Positions 44,401 to 61,655 are shown, counted from the stretch's first letter. The stretch: DNA of 64,000 nucleotides from Fidelibacterota bacterium (GCA_016784025.1 JADHVL010000017.1:4892-68891); one strand, 5' to 3'. Numbers and translations are program-made. Notes: generated by a model from the letters alone, not told the origin.

Positions 44401-45159
44401 CACAATAATCTGGGGACACTTTTCGAGCAGGCTGGGGAGACAAAAAATGCGAAAACTTCCTATGAACAAGCTGTTCTCATTGATCCAGATCTGGCAATAG
44501 CCCATTTCAATCTGGGTCGCTTACATATGAGCTCAGGGGCTGTGGATTCAGCAATGCTTGCCTATGCTATCGTGCTGAAATTGGACCCTGAATACATTCC
44601 TGCTTATTATCGGATCAGCCAAATCTATCAACTTTCAGGAGATTATGAAAAGGCCATTGCCATCATGGAAGCCCTTCTCAAAATTCGTCCTGATTTAAAA
44701 GAAGCCCAGGTTGAAATAAAAAATCTCACCGTGCGAATGGAACAGAAACAGGAACCACCGAAGGTATCCGTTCAGATGCCCCCTCGTACAGCAAAATCAG
44801 ACAAAAGTACGGATCCCAGATATTTTTATAACCAGGCTGTCATGTTGATTCAGAAGCAAAAATATAGAGAAGCGATGGTTGATTTTGAACGGGCACTTTC
44901 TTTAAAACCAGACTACCTGAACGCTATCATTGGACTTGGAGCCATGTATCAGAACCTGAGTGAGTATGATGCTGCAATCAGCCAGTATAAGCGAGCCCTG
45001 GTTATTGATCCAAATCATAGCGGGACCCACAATAACATAGCCATCAATTATTATACGGTGCGAAAATATAAATTGGCCATTGAACATGCCGATAGGGCCA
45101 AAGCATTGGGTTTTAATGTTCAACAGGCCTTTTTGGATGAATTATCAAAGTATCGATAG
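41437..45159 (+). CDS. Fused polytopic membrane / spermidine-synthase-like / TPR-repeat protein
   Basis: 1240 aa: about 14 N-terminal TM helices, an aminopropyl/methyltransferase-like core (ILGLASGVTAGEA, DVITSEPSNPW), then multiple TPR repeats (...AYNTVLELDPEHSHAHNNLG...). Confidence 0.8.
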   Translation: MTDLEKTESTSGYTTRFISLMILVLFLCSGMTGLLYEVIWSRMIVKVIGAAPFAISIVLTVFMGGLGLGSYLAGKYIDQIKKSSQLLQLYGLMEIGIGIYAFMLKGVIAASQPIFSSIYNQSSEHLLIFNAVILLGAFVLFIVPVTLMGATLPILIRFYVANLGHLGARVGRLYAINTIGAAVGSILSGFLLIKLWGVDGTLRFAVVINFLIGGISFVLANWVAKRSALDEQNADRHNVEVSQPAVGIQYSRPHQLAVLAIFAVSGYAAMAYEVIWTRLLGLIIGPTTYSFTIVLTTFIVGLALGAMFFGWLADRSKHPFRLLLITQMSAAILALAVSQFLGNSQFFFAKLIFSFRDDFVMLSIAKATLLFFLLLGPTLALGATFPLVGKIYTSSIRKLGKSIGFAYAINTIGALLGAFSAGFVLIPLFGKENSLSLVIGIQLLTVLAIVGLLYPKGENSRIRLILLISGILGLLLTFAFPHWDREQLATGKYYRFSSYADIIKNTSWWDALVKMPRDFMPNISGTEVVFYGDGIGGFTTVEQDIDPLGKPQYVLYNSGKADASSESDMATQTMLAHLPLLFHPQPKNVMILGLASGVTAGEAIYYDLDRLDILEISEQVVEASDFFSETNSDVLSHPATNLIIQDGRAHLELTEQVYDVITSEPSNPWMAGLANLFTEEFFRLTKNRLSWDGVFIQWLPSYQMDWTTFSMIGRTFTKVFPNSLLMKSFLGGNDYLLVGFNGLKQLDLKNGLKNLPKLQKSPNLIVEDPRILYRLIVSDNLPALFGSGPGHTDDHPILEFMAPQRMHLVDKTVEKTLAERRTLSDEIIEVMREVLDVDGQLKFARFMLSVYSPFPDMVDLSAATEEQKVEYIEMLMEYGKNNAVQDYDMFESTGLRDTVIQTQIAQLTQKLPSLPNRLASFFILANAHAELGDFDEAIKYCRQIIEMGSDPIEANLNLGLFCMNAGRNEEAIAAYNTVLELDPEHSHAHNNLGTLFEQAGETKNAKTSYEQAVLIDPDLAIAHFNLGRLHMSSGAVDSAMLAYAIVLKLDPEYIPAYYRISQIYQLSGDYEKAIAIMEALLKIRPDLKEAQVEIKNLTVRMEQKQEPPKVSVQMPPRTAKSDKSTDPRYFYNQAVMLIQKQKYREAMVDFERALSLKPDYLNAIIGLGAMYQNLSEYDAAISQYKRALVIDPNHSGTHNNIAINYYTVRKYKLAIEHADRAKALGFNVQQAFLDELSKYR

Positions 45160-45460
45160 TTTCGCACGAATTATTGCAAGTGTAATTAGTAATGAACATT
45201 GCTTGTAATCGCGGAATGTGGGAGCGTTCTAGAATGTACATTGAGCTTGCATGTGGGGCGTAGCTCTTCGAGCGTAGACCTATCGAAATGTACACAAGGA
45301 CCATGGAAGACAGCCTTAGGCTTCGATACTTCGACTTCGCTCAGCACAGGCTTGCTCAGCCTCCGGCGTCCTCGATGCTTCCCTTTGATTCCTTGAGGGA
45401 GTATATACTCAGTATTGCCGATATGCTCGGAATGACTTATCATAACGACATCGTTTAGCA

Positions 45461-46096
45461 TCAACCATTGATAAGTTTCTGGGCAATTGACAGAATTTTT
45501 GCCGTTTCAATTCGTTTGCGATGATTGTTATCACTATGGGCGAAGCGAATTGTCCCCTGCTTATCAATGATGTAGACACTGGGAACCGGGATGAGATGGT
45601 GATCCTGGCCTGAAGCAGTTTCAATGTTCTGATTGTTTAACTTATAGGCAGCTACCTTGACACTTCCAAAACGTTCTGCAATACCCAGAGTTTGAGCACC
45701 CACCATAGTGCTGTCTGACAGTAGTGTATATGTCAATTCATTTGTATCGATAGTTTTTGAGAGTTCAGCAGGACGATCAGGACTCACAGCAACAATGCGG
45801 TATCCCAGCTCAATCATTTCACCTTCAATTTCTAACAGTTGACCCAACTGTAAATTGCAGTATGGTCACCAGCCCCCGCGATAGTAAATCAATACGACAG
45901 GATCAGTTTGCAGGTAATCATATAAATCGATTGATTCGTATTCTGTGGAGGTAAGCTGGAAATGGGGGAAGGCATCGCCAACACCAGGTGATTTATTTGA
46001 CATTTCTTCGGCTGGTAGACTCTGAGCGCAGACACATGTCGCCATGAATGTTGTTAGTAGGACGGATAGGATATAAGATCTTGAAATTTTAAACAT
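45461..46096 (-). CDS. Secreted peroxiredoxin-like (AhpC/TSA-redoxin family) thiol-disulfide oxidoreductase, probable selenoprotein (UGA at 45866..45868 read as Sec)
   Basis: Track ORFs 45866..46096 and 45461..45847 share one frame and are joined by TGA plus 18 stop-free nt. The fused protein reads ...VVLIYYRGGW-U-PYCNLQLGQLLEIEG..., placing TGA at the first Cys of the W-C-P-x-C motif. A SECIS-like hairpin follows. Confidence 0.75.
45827..45856 (-). promoter_or_regulatory. Candidate bacterial SECIS element
   Basis: The mRNA AAUUUACAGUUG-GGU-CAACUGU-(UAG)-AAAUU starts 9 nt after the UGA. It has a 7-bp upper stem, a GGU apical loop, a 3-nt 3' bulge and a 5-bp lower stem. Confidence 0.6.
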
Positions 46097-46236
46097 GAAG
46101 TCTCCGTTAAATTTAATTCTGACCTAAAATATGCATTCCTGGAGTCGGAAGTGTATTCTACCTGACAGTTGTGACAAGAAATAGGGGCTGTTTGACCCAA
46201 CCCCTTTTCTGAGAAGCGTTAAATGTGTCTTGCAGG

Positions 46237-49200
46237 TTAGGCGTTTTTTAATCGTTTCCGTTCAGCTCGTCGAATCCCTGCATCTGCCAGCAGACTGTAT
46301 AGTGAGGGCACCACAAACAAGGTGAGGAAGGTAGCGGCTGTTAATCCACCAATCACGGTGATAGCCATGGGTGCACGCATTTCAGCCCCTTCACTGGAAT
46401 CTAATACCATAGGAAGCATGCCAAAAATAGTAGTCAGCGCAGTAATCAGGACAGGACGAAGTCGCGTTGAACCAGCTTCAATGATTGCAGCGGTTGCTTC
46501 GATTCCCTTCCGTCGTAACTGGTTGATATAATCCACCAGCACAATACCATTATTCACCACAATTCCTGTAAGCATGATGAAACCGATGAAACTGGTAAGA
46601 CTGATGGTGACACCGGAAATAAGAAAACCAATGACAACACCTATCAATGCAAGGGGAATGGTAACCATGATCACTAAGGGATGAATCAATGATTCAAATT
46701 GTGATGCCATGACCATGAAAACCAACAGGATGGCAAGCGCCAGTGCCTGGCCAAGCGTAATGAAGGTATCTATCATCTGTTCGTATTGACCTCCGTATTC
46801 CACAAAATACCCATCCGGTAGTGACGCCTGAATCGGCTTGAGGATTTCGATGATTTCCCCCATCACCGAGCCCATATCTCGATCCAGAATACTGGCTGTA
46901 ACCAGAACCATACGACTCTGGTTATCCCTAACGATTTTAACTGGTCCTTCCTCTTGTGTAATTGAGGCGACCTGAGCCAGTGGAATTTGAGTTTTCATAG
47001 GGGTTGTCAGTTTGATCTGTCCAATATCACGTATTGAATTGCGCTGATCTTCCCTGAATTTGATACGCACATTGGTCTCGTCACCGGCAAAACGATAGCG
47101 GGTTGCTACCTGACCCAGTGTAGAAGCCTTAATGGTGTTGGCAACCTGTCCTGAGACCAGCCCCATACGGTTAATTTCTTCTCGATTGAGAGCAATATGA
47201 TATTCAGGCTTGGCTTCTTCCATGGAGGATTTGATATCCATAACGCCTTCGACGTCTGCGATGATGGCGGCTACTTCTTTGCTGATCTCTTCCAGAATAA
47301 TAAAATCTTTGCCGAAGACCTGAATCTCCACATCAGCTCCACTGCCACCCATGGCTGCTCCAAAGTCAATACTCTGGATGGTAACATCACGCATGGCTGG
47401 AATCTCGCCACGGATTTTTTCACCGATCTTTGTGGTAGAAAGCGATCGCTCAGATTTTGGCTTCATGGCCAACATGATCATTCCTTCATGGGAACCGGCA
47501 TTGGCCATATCTCCACTTTGACCGCGATCCTCTTCATTGACCCCGTTTGATACGATCACGGTCTGGACGGCATCTTCTGAAAGGGCAATTTTCTCCACTT
47601 GTCTCACAGCCTGGTCTGTTTCTTCAAGGGCTGAACCCACTGGAAGTTTGATCTTCATCATAAGCATGGCCTGATCCATCTCCGGCATGAATTCAGTTCC
47701 AACGACAGGTATGAGCGCCATGGAAGCAATAAACAGGACTGTTGCAGCTCCCAGAGTCTTCCAACGATGTTGCAGTATGAAGGTGAGTCCAATTGTATAG
47801 GAAGCCCGCAGTCGAACGATCCAGGACTCATCTGCTTTAAGGGTGTAATCCACTTTGCTTCTCGGTTTAAAAAAGACAGAAGCGATCATAGGCACCATAG
47901 TGAGTGAGACGAAAAGTGAGGCAAGCAGTGAGAAGGAAATCGAAAGCGCAAGCCCTCGAACCAGCTGTCCTGCAGTACCAGAACCCATGGCCATGGGTAG
48001 AAATACAGCCAGGGTTGTCAGTGTGGATGCCGTAATGGCCATTCCAACCTCTGATGCACCCAGGCGGGCGGCTTCCTTACGGCTTTTGCCTTCCTCAAGA
48101 TGTCGAAACACATTTTCAATAACCACAATGGCATTGTCCACCAGCATGCCAATGCCCAGGGCCAAACCTCCCAGCGTGAGGAGGTTGAGTGTATAGCCAA
48201 CGGCATTAAGAGGTATAAAGGTAACGATTATGGATGTGGGAATGGCAATTCCAACTGCCAGGGTGGGACGAATATTTCTTAAGAAAAAATAAATCATGAG
48301 CATAGCCAGAACACCACCCAGCAAGGCGGTTCGTCCAGTACTGTTCACGGTGAGCTTCACACTGGAGGACATATCCATCCCGATGTGCATCTCAATATCC
48401 TTGGGTAATATTTCCTGTAGATCAGCAAGCTCAGCCTTGACTGCATCTGCAACTTGAACGGTGTTGGCCCCGGATTGTTTGGTAACAATCATCATGACCC
48501 CAGGTTTAGACTGGACCCGCATTTCCGTACGTAAATCCGATACTGTGTCCTTGACCTTGGCAACCTGTCTGAGTTTGATGGGATTACCTGTAGGTGATGC
48601 TCCAACAATGAGGTCTTCCAGTTCTGCCAGGGATGCAAATTCAGCCCGGGTCCGAACCAGAAAATCCTTGTGATCTTCGACGATTCGACCTGCTGGCATA
48701 TTCAGGTTTTCAAAACCAATCACCTGAATGATCTGATTCAGTGTAATTCCAGAGGTTTCCAGAGCGTGCTGATCAATTTCAACCTGAATCTCTCTTACCT
48801 CAGGAGATTGAACGATGACAGAGGCCACTCCTTCAATGCGTTCCAGACGATACCCGGCGGTTTCGTCCATATACTCAGCCAACTCATTGAGGGGTCGTTC
48901 TTCACTGGTGACACCATAAAAGAGTAGGGGTAGAGCAGACATGTCAAACTTCATGACCAGGGGCGTTTGGATATCATCAGGGAGGAAATCTGCAAACATG
49001 GCGAGTTGGTCCCGAAGATCCTGGGCAGCAAAATCAAGATTTGATCCACTTTCAAATTCCACAGCAATCATGGACATGCCTTCCACCGTGGTGGAAACGA
49101 CGCCCTTTACTCCTGAAACAGAGGCAATAGCTTGCTCGATGGGTTTAGTAACAATGGATTCAATATCTTCGGGACTGGCTCCACCATAAACGGTGACCAC

Positions 49201-52399: not shown

Positions 52400-52536
52400 C
52401 AAAAAAGAAATTACTCATATCTTAAGCTTTCGAATTGCTCAAATAATGATTTACATTAGTAGCTAGCCATTAAACACGTTCTTGTTGAGCATAATTAATA
52501 TTGAAGCACAAACACATGCAGGGGAGAAGCATAAAA

Positions 52537-53436
52537 ATGAACTTTAAAACACAGGGAATGCAGATACTGATTACTGCTTTTTTAAGTACGGGACTGATTT
52601 TCGCCCAAGGTATGGGTGGGGGGGGTCATCATGGTGGTGGTCCTGGCGGACCTGGTGCTGGTGGTTGGGGACCTGGTGATAGTACAGGATGTGATTCAAC
52701 AGGGGGTGGTCATCATGGTGGTGGTTGGGGACCTGGCGATAGCACCTGGCATGACAGTTTAGGACATGGTGGACATCATGGACCTGGGCATGGCGGTCCT
52801 GGACATGGTGGACCTGGGCATGGATTCGGTCATGGTGACAGCTTGAGCCTGGATAGTATATTCGTGAGTGGTGTCATCTCCACACTACCTGATACCATGG
52901 ATTTTAACGGCCATGTCCGTATACATGTATCCTATTTCCTTGATGTGGATGGGGACCTGATCGCTGATTATCGTCTAGTTCATCTCAGGGGATTGCAGCA
53001 TGCTGATTCAAACTTTGTTTTGCCCGTTCATGGCAATCTGGTTGAGCTATCCGGACTTTTATTTCCCTCCGATGAGATCCTGGATCGAATCGCTGTTTTA
53101 AGTTTAAGTATTATCGATGAAGACGGTCTATTCGGTACCCTTGGGGTAGTGGATCCGGCATCAACCGGGATGCATTTTGGTCTTCAATCCAGACATTATC
53201 CCAATCCCTTCAATCCCAGTACATCCATCGAATTTTCAATTGAATCAACAGGTCATGTATCTTTAAAGGTATATGATATTACCGGGGTTGAGGTGGCTCA
53301 ACTTATGGATGGAACATATGCTGCAGGTTTACATACGATCCAATTTAACCCAGGTACTTTGAGCGCCGGAACCTACCTCTATGTGATTGAATCAAATGGC
53401 ATGAGAGAAGTAAAACGGGTGGCCTATCTCAAATAA
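52537..53436 (+). CDS. Secreted Gly/His-rich protein with T9SS C-terminal sorting domain
   Basis: Signal peptide MNFKTQGMQILITAFLSTGLIFAQG, low-complexity GGGHHGGGPGGPG...GHGGHHGPGHGGPGHGGPGHGFGHG, and a C-terminal YPNPFNPSTSIEF...YLYVIES...VAYLK sorting domain. The track ORF begins at TTG 52501. Confidence 0.7.
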   Translation: MNFKTQGMQILITAFLSTGLIFAQGMGGGGHHGGGPGGPGAGGWGPGDSTGCDSTGGGHHGGGWGPGDSTWHDSLGHGGHHGPGHGGPGHGGPGHGFGHGDSLSLDSIFVSGVISTLPDTMDFNGHVRIHVSYFLDVDGDLIADYRLVHLRGLQHADSNFVLPVHGNLVELSGLLFPSDEILDRIAVLSLSIIDEDGLFGTLGVVDPASTGMHFGLQSRHYPNPFNPSTSIEFSIESTGHVSLKVYDITGVEVAQLMDGTYAAGLHTIQFNPGTLSAGTYLYVIESNGMREVKRVAYLK

Positions 53437-53623: not shown

Positions 53624-55324
53624 TTATTTGATAAGGGTTAGCTTTTGTACATTCATTTTATGACCACTGATGATGCGAACCAGATAAACACCTGAGTTGT
53701 ATCCACTCATATCTATTTGGAGACTATGATTCCCTGCTTCTTCAATCCCATCACTGAGAACCGCCAGCTCTGTCCCAGTCACAGAATAGAGCACAATCTG
53801 AGTATTCATACGTTCAGGTAGTTCATATTGAATGTTTGTAATTGGGTTGAAGGGATTTGGGTAAGCACCCGTGATGGTGAATTCTTTCGGCAAACCTGAA
53901 CCAATCTCATCAACATCAGAAGCAGTCATAATTTCTACCCATTCAGATTCACCTACAGGATTTTCAGAGCGGAGACGATATTCCCATTCCACACCATTGG
54001 CGATGTAGATCTCAGCATCTACATAGGAGGAGTGACTGGAATCAGGATAGGCCAGGGTAGCCCACTCACTGGTTGAATCAGCAATAGTTACGCGTCGTTG
54101 AAGGTGGTAGTTGAATTCGTTATTGCTGGGATCATCCACCCAATTAAGCTCAATCCAGGTTCCTAGTGGGTCATTTGTGATTTGTGATTCTAAATCAGTT
54201 GGAGCAGTAGGGTGGATGAATTCAACTATAAAAGGAGTTATGATTCCGGACAACCCTATGGCTGAGCCAACAATGAATTTTCCATCATCTGAGATTCCGT
54301 TTGCCTGTGGTAAAAACCAATCCTCCAAAAAATCGTCATCATCAACAAGAACCTGGAGACTGTCCTTGAGATAGGAGATCCCATTTTCTGGTGTATATAT
54401 AATTGCATCACGAGTCCAGATCCAGGTCTGTGCTTGTGCAAATCCAACGGACGTTCCATCATCAATGATATCCATGGGGATGACACCTGCTTCAACAGGA
54501 TTATGTCCAGGTGCAAATCCAATATCTTGCATGCCAGTTTCTTCTGTCCAAACAAACATGGCATTTGGGGACCAACCACAGATGTAATTACCACTGGGAC
54601 TGACACCGAAAGCTTCGCCAGCTACCCAGCCACCCTGGTCACCATTATACCCAAGGAAGACAAGCTCATATTCTCCAGTGAGTTCGTTTAGAACCCAGGC
54701 ATGTGCCGAGCGATCAGTATACTGACCATCCACTTCGATGGAAGCCCAGCCCACGATGACACTACCATCAGCACTCATGTCATTGGGACGACTGCTTAGC
54801 AAGAGACCGTTGTCAGGGAGTAATTCACCATCTGGATCTTCAGGTGTCCAGACAAATGCTGTGGTTCTGTAGTTATCATGCCAGTACATTCCGGCCACGA
54901 TGAAGGTATCCGCCGCCACTGCCCAGGCACCCTGGTACATATATGGATCAAAAGGTTGAGTGCCCTGAATGGGACCAATCATGACCCATTCCTCACCATC
55001 ATAATAGCAGGCAGCATCAACATCGGTTATGGTGTCACCCATCATCATGGGGAAGGGAGATTCACCTACAAGCAATCCGTTGTTATCCATAGCACGAATT
55101 GATCGACCTCCTGTGTGCTCCACCCCCTCCTCTGCTGTCCATAGATAGCTACTGCCAAAGTAGTAGGCACCTCCGAGAAGGGAACCATCTTCATTGGTCC
55201 ACCAGAGGGAACCACCCAGGGGATCAGGAAAGTTTTCTATCACTGAGAATCTTACAATTTCGGGATCAGCAAAGAGGACTGTGCTGATAAAGAGAAGCGT
55301 ACTGAGAATTTTTTTAAGTTTCAT
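53624..55324 (-). CDS. Secreted repeat protein (HAF-like beta-propeller repeats + Fn3 + T9SS sorting domain), paralog A
   Basis: 566 aa with a signal peptide. Recurring ..D/N.S.DG..(I/V)VG.. modules (MDNNGLLVGES, MSADGSVIVGWA, ISDDGKFIVGSA), an Fn3-like segment (PTAPTDL...WEYRLRSENPVGES) and a C-terminal YPNPFNPITNIQY...VYLVRIISG...LTLIK. Confidence 0.8.
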   Translation of the reverse strand: MKLKKILSTLLFISTVLFADPEIVRFSVIENFPDPLGGSLWWTNEDGSLLGGAYYFGSSYLWTAEEGVEHTGGRSIRAMDNNGLLVGESPFPMMMGDTITDVDAACYYDGEEWVMIGPIQGTQPFDPYMYQGAWAVAADTFIVAGMYWHDNYRTTAFVWTPEDPDGELLPDNGLLLSSRPNDMSADGSVIVGWASIEVDGQYTDRSAHAWVLNELTGEYELVFLGYNGDQGGWVAGEAFGVSPSGNYICGWSPNAMFVWTEETGMQDIGFAPGHNPVEAGVIPMDIIDDGTSVGFAQAQTWIWTRDAIIYTPENGISYLKDSLQVLVDDDDFLEDWFLPQANGISDDGKFIVGSAIGLSGIITPFIVEFIHPTAPTDLESQITNDPLGTWIELNWVDDPSNNEFNYHLQRRVTIADSTSEWATLAYPDSSHSSYVDAEIYIANGVEWEYRLRSENPVGESEWVEIMTASDVDEIGSGLPKEFTITGAYPNPFNPITNIQYELPERMNTQIVLYSVTGTELAVLSDGIEEAGNHSLQIDMSGYNSGVYLVRIISGHKMNVQKLTLIK

Positions 55325-55339
55325 GTTATTAGTCCTGTT

Positions 55340-57046
55340 TTATTTAATAAGTGTCAATTTTTGAACAGCCATTTTATCACCGCTTATGATCCGTATGAGA
55401 TATACCCCAGAGCTGAAATCACTCATGTCCAACTGTAGAGTATATTTTCCGGCTGCAAACTGTCCTTCGCGAAGGACAGTCAACTCGGAACCTGTCACAG
55501 AATAAAGCGCGATCTTCGTATTCATCTGCTCAGGTATTTCATACTGAATGTTCGTAATTGGATTGAATGGGTTTGGGTATGCGCCTACAATTTTGAATTC
55601 AGTTGGGAGTCCTGAAGCAATGCGGTCAGTACTTGAAGCCGTCATGATCTCTACCCAGGCTGATTCTCCAACAGGGTTTTCAGCCCTGAGACGATATTCC
55701 CATTCCACCCCATTGGCGAAGTAAAGTTCAGTGTCTCTATAAGTATTCTCTGCTGAATCAGGATTGGCAATGGTAGCCCAATCACTGGTAGAGTCGGCGA
55801 TAATTACGCGTCGCTGCAAATTATATGAGAATTCATTATTCACTGGATCATCAGTCCATGTGAGATCAATCCAGGTTCCATCAGCATCGTTGTAAATTTC
55901 AGAGGAAAGATCTGTTGGAGCAGAAGGCGGGATGAACTCAAGTACAAACGGGGCCAATATCCCAGCTAATCCGATAGCACTCCCCACGATGACCCGTCCA
56001 TCTTCCGAGATGGAGTTGGCTTGAAGAAAAGCCCAGTCTTCAAATTGATCTTCCAGCCCCAGGTTTTCCAGGCTGTCTTTAAGGAAGATAATCCCACTTT
56101 CAGTGGTATAAATAATAGCGCTTCTTCCCCATTCATTAAAGATGGGTTGAGCAAAGCCTACGATGGTCGTATCCGAAGAGGCATCCATACCACTTGCACT
56201 CGCCCATGTTGGATCATGTCCTGGTGCGTGACCCAGATTGACCATACCTTCATCTTCTGTCCAGACGAACAACTCTGTATCACCTGATCTTCCGACAATA
56301 ATTTCTCCATTGTCACTGCAGCCATATGCCTCACCACCCATCCAGCCCTCATCAGCGCCAAGTGCGCCGAGAAACACTAGCTCATAATCGCCAGTGATTT
56401 CATCCAAAATCCAGGCATGGGCAGCTCTGCTGACGTAATCAACACCAGCAGTTCCCATGGAAGCGAAACCCACGATCAATTCACCATTGGCACTTATGTC
56501 ATTGGGTCGACTACTATGCTCAAGACCATGGTCGGGCAGGAGCTCACCATCTGGATCTTCTGGCGTCCACACAAATGCGGTGGTCCTTGAGTTTTCATGC
56601 CAGTACATACCAGCAACGATAAAGGTATCTGCTGCAATAGCCCAGGCGCTTTGATAAAAATTTGGATCGTTAGGCAAAGTACCAGCGATGGGTCCTATCA
56701 TGACCCATTCCTCACCATCGAAATATGAGGCGGCGCTGACCTCTGTCAGGGTATCACCCATAATCATTGGGAAGTAGTTATTCCCGATAAAGGTACCTTG
56801 ATTGTCCATTCCTCGGACATTCGTCCCACCGACATCTTGGATGCCATTTTCTTGACTCCAGAGGAATCCTCCTCCCCAATAGTAGGATCCTCCCAAGAGA
56901 TTGCCATTACTATTGGTCCAGTTCATTTGCCCTCCCGCAGGATCTGCAAGGCCTGCGGCAATAGTAAATTTAACAATTTCTGGATCTTCTGCGAAAAGAG
57001 TTGTGCTAAGGAGGGCTAGAGCTGGTATGAGCTTTCTAAATATCAT
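55340..57046 (-). CDS. Secreted repeat protein (HAF-like repeats + Fn3 + T9SS sorting domain), paralog B
   Basis: 568 aa, collinear with paralogs A and C. 15 nt from paralog A. Confidence 0.8.
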   Translation of the reverse strand: MIFRKLIPALALLSTTLFAEDPEIVKFTIAAGLADPAGGQMNWTNSNGNLLGGSYYWGGGFLWSQENGIQDVGGTNVRGMDNQGTFIGNNYFPMIMGDTLTEVSAASYFDGEEWVMIGPIAGTLPNDPNFYQSAWAIAADTFIVAGMYWHENSRTTAFVWTPEDPDGELLPDHGLEHSSRPNDISANGELIVGFASMGTAGVDYVSRAAHAWILDEITGDYELVFLGALGADEGWMGGEAYGCSDNGEIIVGRSGDTELFVWTEDEGMVNLGHAPGHDPTWASASGMDASSDTTIVGFAQPIFNEWGRSAIIYTTESGIIFLKDSLENLGLEDQFEDWAFLQANSISEDGRVIVGSAIGLAGILAPFVLEFIPPSAPTDLSSEIYNDADGTWIDLTWTDDPVNNEFSYNLQRRVIIADSTSDWATIANPDSAENTYRDTELYFANGVEWEYRLRAENPVGESAWVEIMTASSTDRIASGLPTEFKIVGAYPNPFNPITNIQYEIPEQMNTKIALYSVTGSELTVLREGQFAAGKYTLQLDMSDFSSGVYLIRIISGDKMAVQKLTLIK

Positions 57047-57068
57047 TTTGAGAGTCTTTTGTTTATGT

Positions 57069-58778
57069 CTATTTGATCAGAGTAAGTTTTTGAACATCCA
57101 TTTTATCCCCACTGATGATACGAACGAGATAAACACCAGAACTGTACCCGCTCATGTCCACTTGGAGACTATGATTGCCGGCTTCTGCCATGCCATCACT
57201 AAGAACCGCCAACTCGGTACCTGTCACAGAATAGAGTACAATTTTCGTATTCATCTGCTCAGGTGTTTCATACTGAACGTTTGTAATTGGGTTGAAGGGG
57301 TTTGGGTATGCGCCTACAATTTTGAACTCAGTTGGGAGTCCTGAAGCAATGCGGTCCGTACTTGAAGCTGTCATGATCTCCACCCAGTCAGATTCACCCA
57401 CTGGGTTTTCAGCACGAAGACGATATTCCCACTCCACACCATTTGCAAAGTAGAGTTCACTATCTCTATAGGTATTGTCGGCTGAATCAGGATTGGCGAT
57501 AGTTGTCCACTCACTGGTAGAGTCAGCAATGGTCACGCGACGTTGTAGATTATAGGAAAATTCATTATTGGTGGGATCATCAGTCCAGCTAAGATCAATC
57601 CAGGTCCCCAAGGGGTCGTTATATAGCTCAGAAGCCAGGTCTGAAGGTGCTGAGGGGGGGATAAATTCCAGGATGAAAGGAGCCATGATTCCATCAATAC
57701 CAGCACAGCTACCCACGATGAAACGGCCATCATCTGATATATCATTAGCCTGGAAAAAGCCCCAATCTTCTAAAAAGTCATCATCATCTACCAGAATTTG
57801 TAAACTATCTTTTAGAAATTTAATGCCACTTTCGGGAGTGTATATAATTGCTTCACGAGTCCATACCCAGGTTTGATTCTGGGCAAAACCCACAGCTGTC
57901 CCATTATCAATAATATCCATGGGTATAACACCAGCTGACTCTGGATTATGACCAGGGGCATATCCCATATCCTGAATCCCTGTTGCTTCAGACCAAATGA
58001 ACATAGCTGAGGGTGACCAGCCACAAATCAACTCCCCATTGGGACTCACACCATACGCTTCGCCTCCAACCCAGGGTTCATGACCACCCAATGAGCCAAG
58101 AAAAACCAGGTCATATTCTCCAGTAGTTTCATTCAAAAACCAGGCATAGGCAGCTCTATCTGTATATTGACCATCAGTGTCAACGCCTGCCCACCCAACA
58201 ATAACACTGCCATCAGCATTCATATCATTGGGTCTGCTGCTTAGCAAGAGGCCATTATCTGGGAGCAATTCACCATCTGGATCTTCAGGTGTCCAGATAA
58301 AAGCTGTTGTTCGGTAATTATCATGCCAGTACATACCGGCTATGATCATGGTATCAGCCGCAATGGACCAGGCACCTTGATACATATTGGGATCAAAAGG
58401 TAGCGTCCCGGCTATGGGGCCGATCATGACCCATTCTTCACCATCATAATAGCTGGCAGCTTCGACATCAGTCAGGGTATCACCCATGAGCATGGGAAAA
58501 ATAGTCTCACCAACCATAATACCATTATTATCCATTCCACGGATGTAATAACCACCTATGTTATCAATACCATCTTCTTCGGTCCAGGTAAAACCACCAC
58601 CAAAATAGTTGGCACCACCGAATATGGAGCCGTCACTATTTGAGTAGTACAGGCCGCCACCCCATTGATCTAAGAGGCCATCCACCACCGTAAATTTTAC
58701 TATTTCTGGATCAGCAAAGCCTAAAGAAACGAGCAGGAGTAGACTAATAGTAATAAGCTTAATAAGATTTGATTTCAT
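57069..58778 (-). CDS. Secreted repeat protein (HAF-like repeats + Fn3 + T9SS sorting domain), paralog C
   Basis: 569 aa, collinear with paralogs A and B. 22 nt from paralog B. Confidence 0.8.
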   Translation of the reverse strand: MKSNLIKLITISLLLLVSLGFADPEIVKFTVVDGLLDQWGGGLYYSNSDGSIFGGANYFGGGFTWTEEDGIDNIGGYYIRGMDNNGIMVGETIFPMLMGDTLTDVEAASYYDGEEWVMIGPIAGTLPFDPNMYQGAWSIAADTMIIAGMYWHDNYRTTAFIWTPEDPDGELLPDNGLLLSSRPNDMNADGSVIVGWAGVDTDGQYTDRAAYAWFLNETTGEYDLVFLGSLGGHEPWVGGEAYGVSPNGELICGWSPSAMFIWSEATGIQDMGYAPGHNPESAGVIPMDIIDNGTAVGFAQNQTWVWTREAIIYTPESGIKFLKDSLQILVDDDDFLEDWGFFQANDISDDGRFIVGSCAGIDGIMAPFILEFIPPSAPSDLASELYNDPLGTWIDLSWTDDPTNNEFSYNLQRRVTIADSTSEWTTIANPDSADNTYRDSELYFANGVEWEYRLRAENPVGESDWVEIMTASSTDRIASGLPTEFKIVGAYPNPFNPITNVQYETPEQMNTKIVLYSVTGTELAVLSDGMAEAGNHSLQVDMSGYSSGVYLVRIISGDKMDVQKLTLIK

Positions 58779-59198: not shown

Positions 59199-61655
59199 AT
59201 GAAAAGAACGCAACCATGGTTGGTAATCGTATTTTTATTGATTGCCTCCGTGAGCCTTCAGGCTCAACTGGTGGAAGCAATTGATATTACAAACATGATC
59301 TACGTTCCAGATGATGGACAATATGGTCCCTGGAAAATGGATGCGGGTGGGAAATACATCCTTGGTAATAAAATGCCGGGAGAATGGGATCTGCATCGAG
59401 TTGTCCGACACGAGACTGCAAACTTTGTGAATGGGGATAATTACTGGCCAGGATCATACGGAAGTATAAATTGGCAGGGCAGCGGTGGCCAAATAAGCCA
59501 GGCAAATGCCATAGCCAGCAACGGAGCTGTCGTCGGTAGTTTTACCTGGGATTATTTTGAATATGATGCTGACGGTGACACACTCCCAGATACACTATTT
59601 AACGCAACAATTGCTTCTATTGCAGACCCTGCTCTGTGGGGTGAATGGAAAACTCTGGGTGGAATCCTCGATGATTCCCTGGCTTATGGTAGCACTAGTT
59701 TTAGTAAAGCTTCACTTATCAGTGATGATGGCAACGTTATCTTCGGTACGATGGCTTACGCCGATACCAATGAGTGGGGTGGTGATCAAAATTTTGATGT
59801 TCCCTTTATATATCATCTCGACAGTATGCATCTTGACATGGATTTGCCAGGACGAAGTGGCGGATCCATAATTAGCACTATGAGTGGTGATGGTTCAATA
59901 CTTATAGGTTCAAGCAAGGTGGGCTGGACAAGCTATCCCTTTATCTGGAGACAGAATGCTGAGGGTGGTTATGATTCAACAGCTGTCGATTCTCCTATTG
60001 TAGATATGGGACAGGCTCGTATCAGTGTTAATGGAAAACACATAACCGGTAATGGTCCTTTCAATTTCAATGGTCAGGCTGCCTATATGATGACTGAGAT
60101 CGATGGCGTGGACACACTCATGCAAATGGCTGGTCTTCCTGGAATGCTTGGTGGTCCTGGTGCAAAATCCGTATCAAATGATGGTACTGCTTTTGGTTTA
60201 TTCCAAGAAGTTGGCGGTCCCTGGGGCGGTCCCATGCATCCATGGATGTGGCACGCAGAAGGTGGCGCTAAAGATGTTGCTTATGCTCTTGAATCTCTGG
60301 GTATGGAAATACCAACTGGAGAACAGGCACCTTTTGATCAGGGTCAGATTATCTCAGCAGATTCAACTGGTAAAAAACTTTTCGTCAACTGGACAAATGC
60401 TAACTGGGAAGCTGCCTATTCATGGGTAATCCTTCCTGATGTCGCTCCTCCAACTCATCTTGAGATAGCCTATGATAACGACAATCATGTCGTTCCTGCT
60501 ACACTGGAACTTGAGTGGGAAAACGTACTTCCATATGCCTACACCTATCGCTTAGAGGTCAGCTATATGCCTTATGGCGGTACTTGGGGTACCTGGACAG
60601 AGTTGGCTAATAACTATGATGATGATGACTTTGATCACGCCATCACAGAAGGTGGATACTATAAATATCAGATCGTTTCACTCTATGGTGCTGATGAATC
60701 CATGGCAACAGAATCCATGCCTTATGAAGTCCGTCGTCTTATGGACGAACCAGCCATCATTGCCGTGACGGATGTTCCTGAAGATCAGGGTGGTAAAGTG
60801 GTTGTAAGCTTTGCAGCCAGTGGCTTTGATATTCTTGGTGACATGACCAATGAGCTCTACACTGTTGAATCTTATATCGCTGATCAGTGGGTAGCAGTTG
60901 GAAACACAGCAGCCTACGGATCAAACGAATATTCAGTTCTGGTAAACACAATTCATGATTCCATGGATGAAGGTGTAACCAATGCACAGGATTATCGTAT
61001 TGTGGCTGCACTGGGTGAAGATGCCTTTATCAGTGCCACCGCATCAGGTTATTCAACTGACGATATTGCGCCGCCCGTCCCAACTGGTCTGGCAGGCGAG
61101 ATTCTTGACGGGACTGGAATTGCTCTCTCCTGGGATCCAGTGAACATCAATGATCTTGGTCTGTATGAAGTGTATCGTGGCAGCAATCCTGAAATGACTG
61201 ATGGCGTTGTTATCGGTCAGACCGCATCAACTGATTATACCGATTCTGATGTGGATTTCGTGAATGGAGCTACTTACTACTATGCAGTAGCAGGTCTGGA
61301 TATTCATGAGAATCTTGGAGAGGCTACCAGTAGTTTTGTAATGACAGTCGTGAATATTGATCTTCAGGGTTTGCCAGAAGAATTCGCACTGAATCAGAAC
61401 TATCCCAATCCTTTCAACCCAAGCACCTCCATCAACTTCAGTCTTCCTGAGGCCTCAGAGATGACCCTCACAGTCTACGACTTGAGTGGACGTGAAGTTG
61501 CTCGTCTGGTTGATGCTTCCATGAATGCCGGATTTCATCAGGTGATCTGGAATGGGTTGACTGCTCAGGGAGAGACCCTTTCCACAGGTATGTATATCTA
61601 CCGCATGCAGGCAGGTACTTATACTGAAACTAGAAAGATGACCTACCTCAGGTAG
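59199..61655 (+). CDS. Large secreted repeat protein (HAF-like repeats, Fn3-like domains, T9SS sorting domain)
   Basis: 818 aa with a signal peptide and an AGGAG RBS. Repeats IASNGAVVGSF, ISDDGNVIFGTM, MSGDGSILIGSS and VSNDGTAFGLF; Fn3-like IAPPVPTGL...YEVYRG...YYYAVAGLD; C-terminal YPNPFNPSTSINF...MYIYRMQAG...MTYLR. Confidence 0.8.
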   Translation: MKRTQPWLVIVFLLIASVSLQAQLVEAIDITNMIYVPDDGQYGPWKMDAGGKYILGNKMPGEWDLHRVVRHETANFVNGDNYWPGSYGSINWQGSGGQISQANAIASNGAVVGSFTWDYFEYDADGDTLPDTLFNATIASIADPALWGEWKTLGGILDDSLAYGSTSFSKASLISDDGNVIFGTMAYADTNEWGGDQNFDVPFIYHLDSMHLDMDLPGRSGGSIISTMSGDGSILIGSSKVGWTSYPFIWRQNAEGGYDSTAVDSPIVDMGQARISVNGKHITGNGPFNFNGQAAYMMTEIDGVDTLMQMAGLPGMLGGPGAKSVSNDGTAFGLFQEVGGPWGGPMHPWMWHAEGGAKDVAYALESLGMEIPTGEQAPFDQGQIISADSTGKKLFVNWTNANWEAAYSWVILPDVAPPTHLEIAYDNDNHVVPATLELEWENVLPYAYTYRLEVSYMPYGGTWGTWTELANNYDDDDFDHAITEGGYYKYQIVSLYGADESMATESMPYEVRRLMDEPAIIAVTDVPEDQGGKVVVSFAASGFDILGDMTNELYTVESYIADQWVAVGNTAAYGSNEYSVLVNTIHDSMDEGVTNAQDYRIVAALGEDAFISATASGYSTDDIAPPVPTGLAGEILDGTGIALSWDPVNINDLGLYEVYRGSNPEMTDGVVIGQTASTDYTDSDVDFVNGATYYYAVAGLDIHENLGEATSSFVMTVVNIDLQGLPEEFALNQNYPNPFNPSTSINFSLPEASEMTLTVYDLSGREVARLVDASMNAGFHQVIWNGLTAQGETLSTGMYIYRMQAGTYTETRKMTYLR

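Follow-up and report, generated by a model that had tools for sequence, protein, structure and literature searches.

A predicted selenocysteine codon in the redox motif of a probably exported peroxiredoxin-like protein of a Fidelibacterota bacterium

Results and Discussion

An in-frame UGA within a single redoxin gene

We analyzed a 64,000-nucleotide stretch of DNA, hereafter the window, and conclude with high confidence that its minus strand carries one gene for a probably exported thiol:disulfide oxidoreductase of peroxiredoxin (Prx) fold, with the active site Sec-Pro-Tyr-Cys, in which the UGA at codon 77 is a predicted selenocysteine (Sec) codon. As reported in a preliminary description of this DNA, two minus-strand ORFs lie in one frame, and the gap between them consists of 18 stop-free nucleotides (Table 1). 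Reading through the TGA yields a protein of 211 residues, MFKISRSYILSVLLTTFMATCVCAQS...VVLIYYRGGW[TGA]PYCNLQLGQLLEIEGEM..., with the residues YYRGGW[TGA]PYCNLQLGQLL around the stop. With Cys replacing the stop, the Pfam model AhpC-TSA (PF00578) matches residues 39 to 185 of the fused protein (E = 3.9e-25, 88.6 bits versus a cut-off of 26), and the Redoxin model also matches it (E = 1.4e-12). Because the AhpC-TSA match covers residues on either side of the TGA, a single domain crosses the stop, and the single AhpC/TSA protein proposed earlier is borne out. The tryptic peptide across the junction would be GGW[U]PYCNLQLGQLLEIEGEMIELGYR, where U is the predicted Sec. For the terminal TGA, the best downstream helix has 4 bp, and an in-frame TAA follows one codon on.

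The N-terminal region has the features of a signal peptide, namely a basic n-region, a hydrophobic core and a V-x-A sequence ahead of the predicted cut after VCA, and orthologues show the same pattern (IYA|Q, LCA|E). As the N terminus reads as a signal peptide, the protein is probably exported and periplasmic.

Table 1. Coordinates of the features discussed in the text (window coordinates unless a locus is named)
Feature	Position	Strand	Basis or remark
Complete Prx-like gene, predicted selenoprotein	45461..46096	-	211 codons plus terminal TGA 45463..45461
Upstream ORF, 76 aa	46096..45866	-	ORF reading; ends at TGA 45868..45866
Downstream ORF, 128 aa	45847..45461	-	ORF reading; begins at TTG
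Shine-Dalgarno-like GGAG	46102..46105	-	5 nt 5′ of ATG 46096
Predicted signal peptide, residues 1-24	46025..46096	-	Read from sequence; MFKISRSYILSVLLTTFMATCVCA then QS
In-frame UGA, codon 77	45866..45868	-	Predicted Sec, first residue of U-P-Y-C redox motif
Codon 80 (TGC)	45857..45859	-	Resolving Cys of UxxC; invariant column
Full bulged hairpin, CAAUUU-ACAGUUG-GGU-CAACUGU-(UAG)-AAAUUG	45857..45826	-	MFE fold
Upper stem-loop, 17 nt, ACAGUUG-GGU-CAACUGU	45835..45851	-	Predicted SECIS core (SelB-binding hairpin)
Lower helix	45857..45852 paired with 45831..45826	-	3-nt bulge UAG
Terminator-like hairpin of the upstream RND efflux gene	46205..46183	-	Consensus scan, weak evidence
Promoter-like TTGTCA-16-TACACT	46177..46150	-	Consensus scan, weak evidence
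AhpD-like split gene of the sister clade	L034 651..100; L035 1941..1402; L031 9570..9031	-	

The TGA occupies a catalytic Cys column and is conserved

Searches of public collections returned 28 protein clusters with at least 63% identity to the window protein, from approximately 171 contigs of oxygen-minimum-zone, hydrothermal-vent and other metagenomes and of metagenome-assembled genomes (MAGs); all are C-terminal fragments of 117 to 131 residues. Where the relatives are named, they are Candidatus Neomarinimicrobiota MAGs (SAR406/Marinimicrobia, now Fidelibacterota). Public gene calls in this orthologue group bear the name “redoxin domain-containing protein,” accompanied in some records by a stray ORF of 76 aa. 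The close relatives returned are truncated calls throughout, and none is annotated as a selenoprotein.

More distant matches, of 37 to 50% identity, are full-length proteins of approximately 200 residues. Homologues with Cys align continuously across the TGA column, and W76, C77, P78 and C80 (W-C-P-x-C) are invariant in 42 full-length homologues (35 to 43% identity). Cys thus stands exactly in the TGA column, as expected from the earlier placement of the TGA at the first Cys of this motif. Homologues ending or starting here as two separate proteins had been named as grounds for rejecting recoding; none genuinely does so, and the close relatives represent split calls. One gene call (P0021) shows Trp in the TGA column, most probably because the caller used a table in which TGA encodes Trp.

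We collected orthologue DNA from JGI, NCBI, ENA and Logan (loci L001-L013, L016-L020 and L031-L035). TGA is present at codon 77, within YYRGGW-TGA-PYC, in 13/13 distinct orthologue sequences, down to approximately 63% protein identity, and the part upstream of it is kept as conserved protein in all 13.

A conserved stem-loop follows the UGA

The minimum free energy (MFE) fold of the segment 45875..45800 contains a bulged hairpin shortly 3′ of the UGA. Numbered from the U of the UGA (position 1), the upper helix joins 18-24 to 28-34 around a GGU loop, and the lower helix, with the bulge UAG, joins 12-17 to 38-43. The upper stem-loop begins 14 nt, and its loop 21 nt, 3′ of the UGA. The hairpin of the preliminary description is therefore present, one C-G pair longer than it was drawn; its upper 17 nt are kept among relatives, but its lower helix is kept only in part. 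The folding energy of 45875..45800 is no better than that of shuffled sequences (z = -0.9).

In the bacterial SECIS search criteria of the bSECISearch type, the apical loop lies 16 to 37 nt from the UGA and has a G among its first two bases. The hairpin described here, with its 7-bp helix and GGU loop, falls within these limits. A comparable helix, defined as at least 7 Watson-Crick bp with a loop that starts 16 to 37 nt 3′ and has G in its first two bases, follows 23 of the 3147 TGA trinucleotides of the window (0.7%).

The SECIS of Escherichia coli fdhF is a hairpin within the coding sequence, just 3′ of the UGA. Its upper stem-loop of 17 nt starts 11 nt after the UGA and has a GGU(C) apex and a bulged U in the stem, with an asymmetric bulge below. 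The window hairpin resembles it in its location in the coding sequence, the 17-nt upper stem-loop, the GGU(C) apex and the asymmetric lower bulge, but differs in starting at 14 rather than 11 nt, in having a 3-nt loop and in lacking the bulged U. The U of the loop is replaced by C in three relatives.

Comparison of the orthologues showed that the upper helix (7 bp) is paired in 100% of cells over the 13 distinct sequences, with the consensus ACAGYUG-GGY-CARCUGU. Pair 22-30 is U-A in nine of them and C-G in four, with no intermediates; the change from one to the other amounts to two synonymous substitutions, in a Leu codon (TTG/CTG) and a Gln codon (CAA/CAG). The sequences with C-G include L020, whose protein is 64% identical to that of the window, and the L010 group (approximately 85%). 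The observed covariation was matched by 1 of 500 shuffles, and control helices slid along the alignment were paired in 14 to 54% of cells. The covariation concerns a single pair and may reflect one or two independent events. The lower helix is paired in 92% of cells (10 sequences); pair A13-U42 is broken in five of these 10, and further changes occur in the sister clade described below. With this AAUUU/AAAUU helix broken in many relatives, the conserved part of the hairpin is the 17-nt upper stem-loop only. A TGA found in every distinct orthologue, followed by a conserved hairpin with a compensatory change, favors the proposal made at the outset of a Sec-recoded gene that gene callers split.

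The upper helix is encoded by the peptide Q-L-G-Q-L, whose Gly codon supplies the G's of the loop. Since CAR (Gln) is the reverse complement of YUG (Leu), a codon choice that forms a hairpin is always available to this peptide. However, a Cys homologue with the same NLQLGQL sequence (L026) uses the codons AAC CTT CAA CTT GGT CAG TTA and has no hairpin; this one control argues that selection acts on the hairpin itself in the TGA clade, rather than on the peptide with the hairpin as a side effect. The nearest Cys homologues (P0025, P0027 and P0029) already have QLGQL, and the consensus of the wider family is HLGQL. The Q-L-G-Q-L peptide may have pre-adapted the lineage for conversion of Cys to Sec.

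The covariance-model check suggested earlier gave no support: Rfam searches of the whole window at gathering score, and of 45100..46300 at E ≤ 10, returned no SECIS or other relevant family. This result carries little weight since bacterial SECIS elements are short and lineage-specific. We also considered a different hairpin, at 45840..45868 on the minus strand, that pairs the UGA itself (UGACC/GGUCA plus ACUG/CAGU) and is the MFE structure in some folds. It is mutually exclusive with the predicted SECIS. It has seven uncompensated breaks over the 13 sequences and shows no covariation, and so is probably not functional, although a regulatory switch is conceivable.

Decoding of the UGA and alternative readings

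Of the 49 long ORFs of the window, 10 close with TGA, 21 with TAA and 18 with TAG. Since TGA serves as a normal stop in the rest of the window, genome-wide reassignment is excluded and recoding is site-specific. The Prx-like gene is the only convincing case of a split by an in-frame TGA in the window. Scans of the window, of intergenic gaps and of all loci for further genes with in-frame TGA codons returned noise, with one exception in loci L031-L035.

Those loci represent a sister clade whose Prx-like orthologue, at 63 to 65% identity, also contains the TGA. A short distance upstream of it lies a divergently transcribed split gene of the AhpD-like/CMD type (Table 1), called as fragments of 72 aa and 69 to 109 aa. 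PF02627 matches across its stop (E = 1.8e-13), and its in-frame TGA lies in ENECHY[U]IxHHG, a CxxU motif. A hairpin of the type CGGAGC-GGG-GCUUCG, with a G-rich loop, is found 13 nt 3′ of this TGA. The AhpD-like split gene is absent from the 64-kb window. A presumed pair of leucyl-tRNA synthetase (LeuRS) genes, considered as a marker of relatedness to the L031 clade, was discarded, as the 818-aa ORF of the window encodes a T9SS-sorted protein and not LeuRS.

Genes for selA, selB, selD or tRNA-Sec were not found in the window or in approximately 267 kb of related loci. ARAGORN detected no tRNA-Sec in the window and 22 related loci; it did report ordinary tRNAs (Pro, Gln, Glu and Arg) in L031-L033. 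A tblastn search of the 267 kb of DNA with an E. coli SelD query gave no match. Two SAR406 single-cell genomes are among the organisms listed as Sec-utilizing (PMC5029168, Table S2), and a literature search for selenoproteins in Marinimicrobia found nothing specific beyond Peng et al. 2016. That listing and the AhpD-like gene of the sister clade provide indirect support, at the level of the lineage, for a capacity to decode Sec.

The best-surviving alternative to Sec insertion, though a very improbable one, is read-through of the UGA in which a suppressor tRNA, a near-cognate tRNA or a selC-like tRNA charged with Cys inserts Cys, Trp or Gly, and the hairpin does no more than stimulate the event. 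It could draw on the Sec machinery not being seen in the DNA surveyed and on the Trp of the P0021 call. Against it, TGA is an ordinary stop for long ORFs of the window, which have no other in-frame TGA codons, and the site falls in the column of the catalytic Cys in a family with known Sec forms. Furthermore, genomes of the phylum are listed as Sec users, and a CxxU AhpD-like gene, a classic type of selenoprotein gene, adjoins the sister-clade orthologue. We give equally little credence to the related idea of a clade devoid of canonical Sec machinery, in which the UGA and its hairpin would be decoded otherwise, for example with a selC-like tRNA inserting Cys or with read-through that the hairpin stimulates. 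If it were so, the signal would recode this one site and only resemble that of a selenoprotein gene. The pre-adaptation of the Q-L-G-Q-L peptide suggested above is a milder point and a likelier one.

Even less probable is a pseudogene created by a nonsense mutation, or a TGA resulting from a sequencing or assembly error. Annotation pipelines do take the TGA as a stop, and a decayed copy of the gene exists in another genome (L014). However, the TGA is found in 13 distinct sequences that differ at approximately 65% of synonymous sites. We determined pN/pS by segment for 10 distinct orthologues, in which synonymous sites are near saturation (pS 0.63 to 0.70), and obtained 0.25 for the signal peptide, 0.34 for the remaining N-terminal part, 0.11 for the first 20 codons 3′ of the TGA and 0.18 for the remainder downstream. 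As purifying selection acts on every segment, both “fragments” are maintained as coding sequence, and the stop between them is unchanged. In the same 10 orthologues, pS drops to 0.49 across the 20 codons 3′ of the TGA, as expected for a superimposed RNA structure. Moreover, two separate Logan read-set assemblies and the MAG contig GCA_014382565.1 JACNJK010000069.1 carry the same 636-nt gene letter for letter, TGA included, which makes an error peculiar to one assembly unlikely. The true pseudogene of L014 looks different, with an internal deletion that fuses ...PVELI with RKRI... and several stops in the signal peptide. The reading as a pseudogene or an error is effectively refuted already.

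Least probable of all are two separately translated genes, one for a secreted peptide of 76 aa and the other for a cytoplasmic redoxin fragment of 128 aa: this is the arrangement of all public gene calls, but the Pfam domain and the predicted fold cross the junction, the downstream piece would be left without CxxC, no Shine-Dalgarno sequence precedes its TTG “start,” four orthologues (L010, L016, L018 and L020) have the non-start codon CTG in place of this TTG, and homologues are single chains of approximately 200 residues.

A predicted oxidoreductase of the CxxC type with a peroxiredoxin-like fold

The solved structures closest in sequence belong to peroxiredoxins of the BCP/PrxQ type (2cx3, E = 7e-9). 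In the alignment to 2cx3, Cys80 corresponds to the peroxidatic Cys, and Arg73 and Sec77 replace the Pro and the Thr/Ser of the canonical PxxxT/SxxC motif, of which C80 alone is retained. Evidence on the fold came from the AlphaFold model of a Cys homologue, P0028, standing in for the window protein. The model (pLDDT 93.5) has a peroxiredoxin/thioredoxin-like fold, and the first Cys of the motif lies at the start of helix 82-92. Its best matches in the PDB are Bcp4, BcpB, PrxQ and ResA, at 14 to 22% identity (Foldseek E = 6e-13 to 3hjp). The fold of this homologue is thus that of canonical BCP/PrxQ peroxiredoxins (2cx3, 3hjp). Based on this model and the motif, the protein is predicted to be a thioredoxin-like oxidoreductase of the CxxC type on a peroxiredoxin scaffold rather than a canonical peroxidase. 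As the motif is thioredoxin-like, peroxidase chemistry is not implied. In the TxxU selenoproteins of the Prx class, Sec occupies the peroxidatic position, unlike in the window protein.

Sub-threshold NCBIfam matches were obtained to thiol peroxidase, SelL-related redox protein and ResA. We rejected membership in the SelL-related family (NF040769), for which the score was 45.2 bits versus a cut-off of 120 (E = 7e-12). The likeness to these proteins is a weak similarity over the whole domain, with a Prx-like fold and a redox motif in the same place. A literature search on SelL found nothing further that bears on the gene.

The family to which the gene conforms is a known one. The “Prx-like 1” group (pfam00578, UxxC) of the GOS ocean metagenome comprised 225 selenoprotein sequences and 2,740 Cys homologues (PMC2398784), and 28 sequenced bacteria have members of the Prx-like thiol:disulfide oxidoreductase selenoprotein family (PMC5029168). 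The passage of PMC13188914 that cites its ref. 12 attributes the first prediction of the Prx-like family to prokaryotic selenoproteome work of 2004. Reviews of selenoproteins also cover the Prx-like thiol:disulfide oxidoreductase (PF00578, UxxC/UxxU). The window gene shares with this family PF00578, the UxxC motif with Sec first, numerous Cys homologues and a marine habitat. A Prx-like/AhpD-like neighborhood has been reported from GOS reads, and the same neighborhood occurs in the sister clade. The window clade differs from the family in belonging to SAR406/Marinimicrobia (Fidelibacterota) and in having a signal peptide. By the operational definition of PF00578 with W-U-P-Y-C, the gene is a predicted member of the Prx-like UxxC family, whose reference member is WP_010940744.1.

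Proposed mechanism and significance

In the mechanism that we propose, translation would start at ATG 46096, and the UGA at codon 77 would be decoded as Sec instead of stop. The 17-nt stem-loop in the Q-L-G-Q-L codons, 14 nt downstream, would hold SelB-GTP-Sec-tRNA(Sec) at the ribosome. Translation would then end at the real stop, 45463..45461, where no such hairpin follows. The mature protein would have approximately 187 residues, with Sec77 where the first helix of the thioredoxin-like fold begins, which is the attacking (nucleophilic) position of a CxxC-type motif. The enzyme would cycle between the selenol/thiol form and a Sec77-Cys80 selenenylsulfide, and we infer that it would thereby reduce an oxidized periplasmic substrate.

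SAR406/Marinimicrobia is an abundant, almost wholly uncultured lineage of the deep ocean. The main value of the reading as a selenoprotein gene is a correction of annotation, since the public calls lack both the active site and the signal peptide. If correct, it places an exported selenoenzyme among the redox proteins of SAR406/Marinimicrobia and implies a selenium requirement for the lineage. It leaves knowledge of Sec decoding and of the Prx-like protein family unchanged. That family has been known as a predicted marine selenoprotein family since 2004-2008, and the gene is unsurprising to a specialist. What is new is the lineage-specific exported SAR406/Marinimicrobia clade and the truncation of all close relatives returned, and nothing beyond.

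Genomic context and gene loss

Upstream on the same strand is a TetR-OEP-HlyD-RND efflux cluster, and downstream is a convergent gene for a 1240-aa MFS/spermine-synthase/TPR protein. The terminator-like and promoter-like sites between the efflux cluster and the Prx-like gene (Table 1) suggest that the latter forms its own transcription unit, and it looks monocistronic. The upstream neighbor varies among orthologues and is either an RND pump or an S8 peptidase; as the S8 peptidase takes this place in other orthologues, a link with efflux is not conserved.

A decayed remnant of the Prx-like gene is present at L014 9990..10240, flanked by the same neighbors, an S8 peptidase gene and a 1237-aa SpeE/TPR gene, and others are present in L022 and L023. 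In the MAG SI053_bin30, a decayed copy lies on a second contig binned there, in addition to an intact copy (L011). These remnants show that some Marinimicrobia genomes have lost the gene.

The spacer between the Prx-like gene and the convergent gene (45160..45460) measures approximately 300 nt in the window, 26 nt in L001 and approximately 157 nt in L005. In the window it includes a stretch of locally high GC content and an ORF of 91/92 aa (NCBI call) that has no Pfam match, and a 21-nt imperfect direct repeat (at 45198 and 45414) flanks most of it. A repeat search of this spacer found nothing convincing. The spacer may be a small insertion; the window holds no other copy of it.

Elsewhere in the window, three ORFs (52501..53436, 57069..58778 and 59199..61655) encode proteins with a Por_Secre_tail, the C-terminal sorting domain of type IX secretion, which fits an organism of the FCB group. 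Three tandem paralogous ORFs of approximately 568 aa (53624..58778, minus strand) lie ahead of the Por_Secre_tail proteins.
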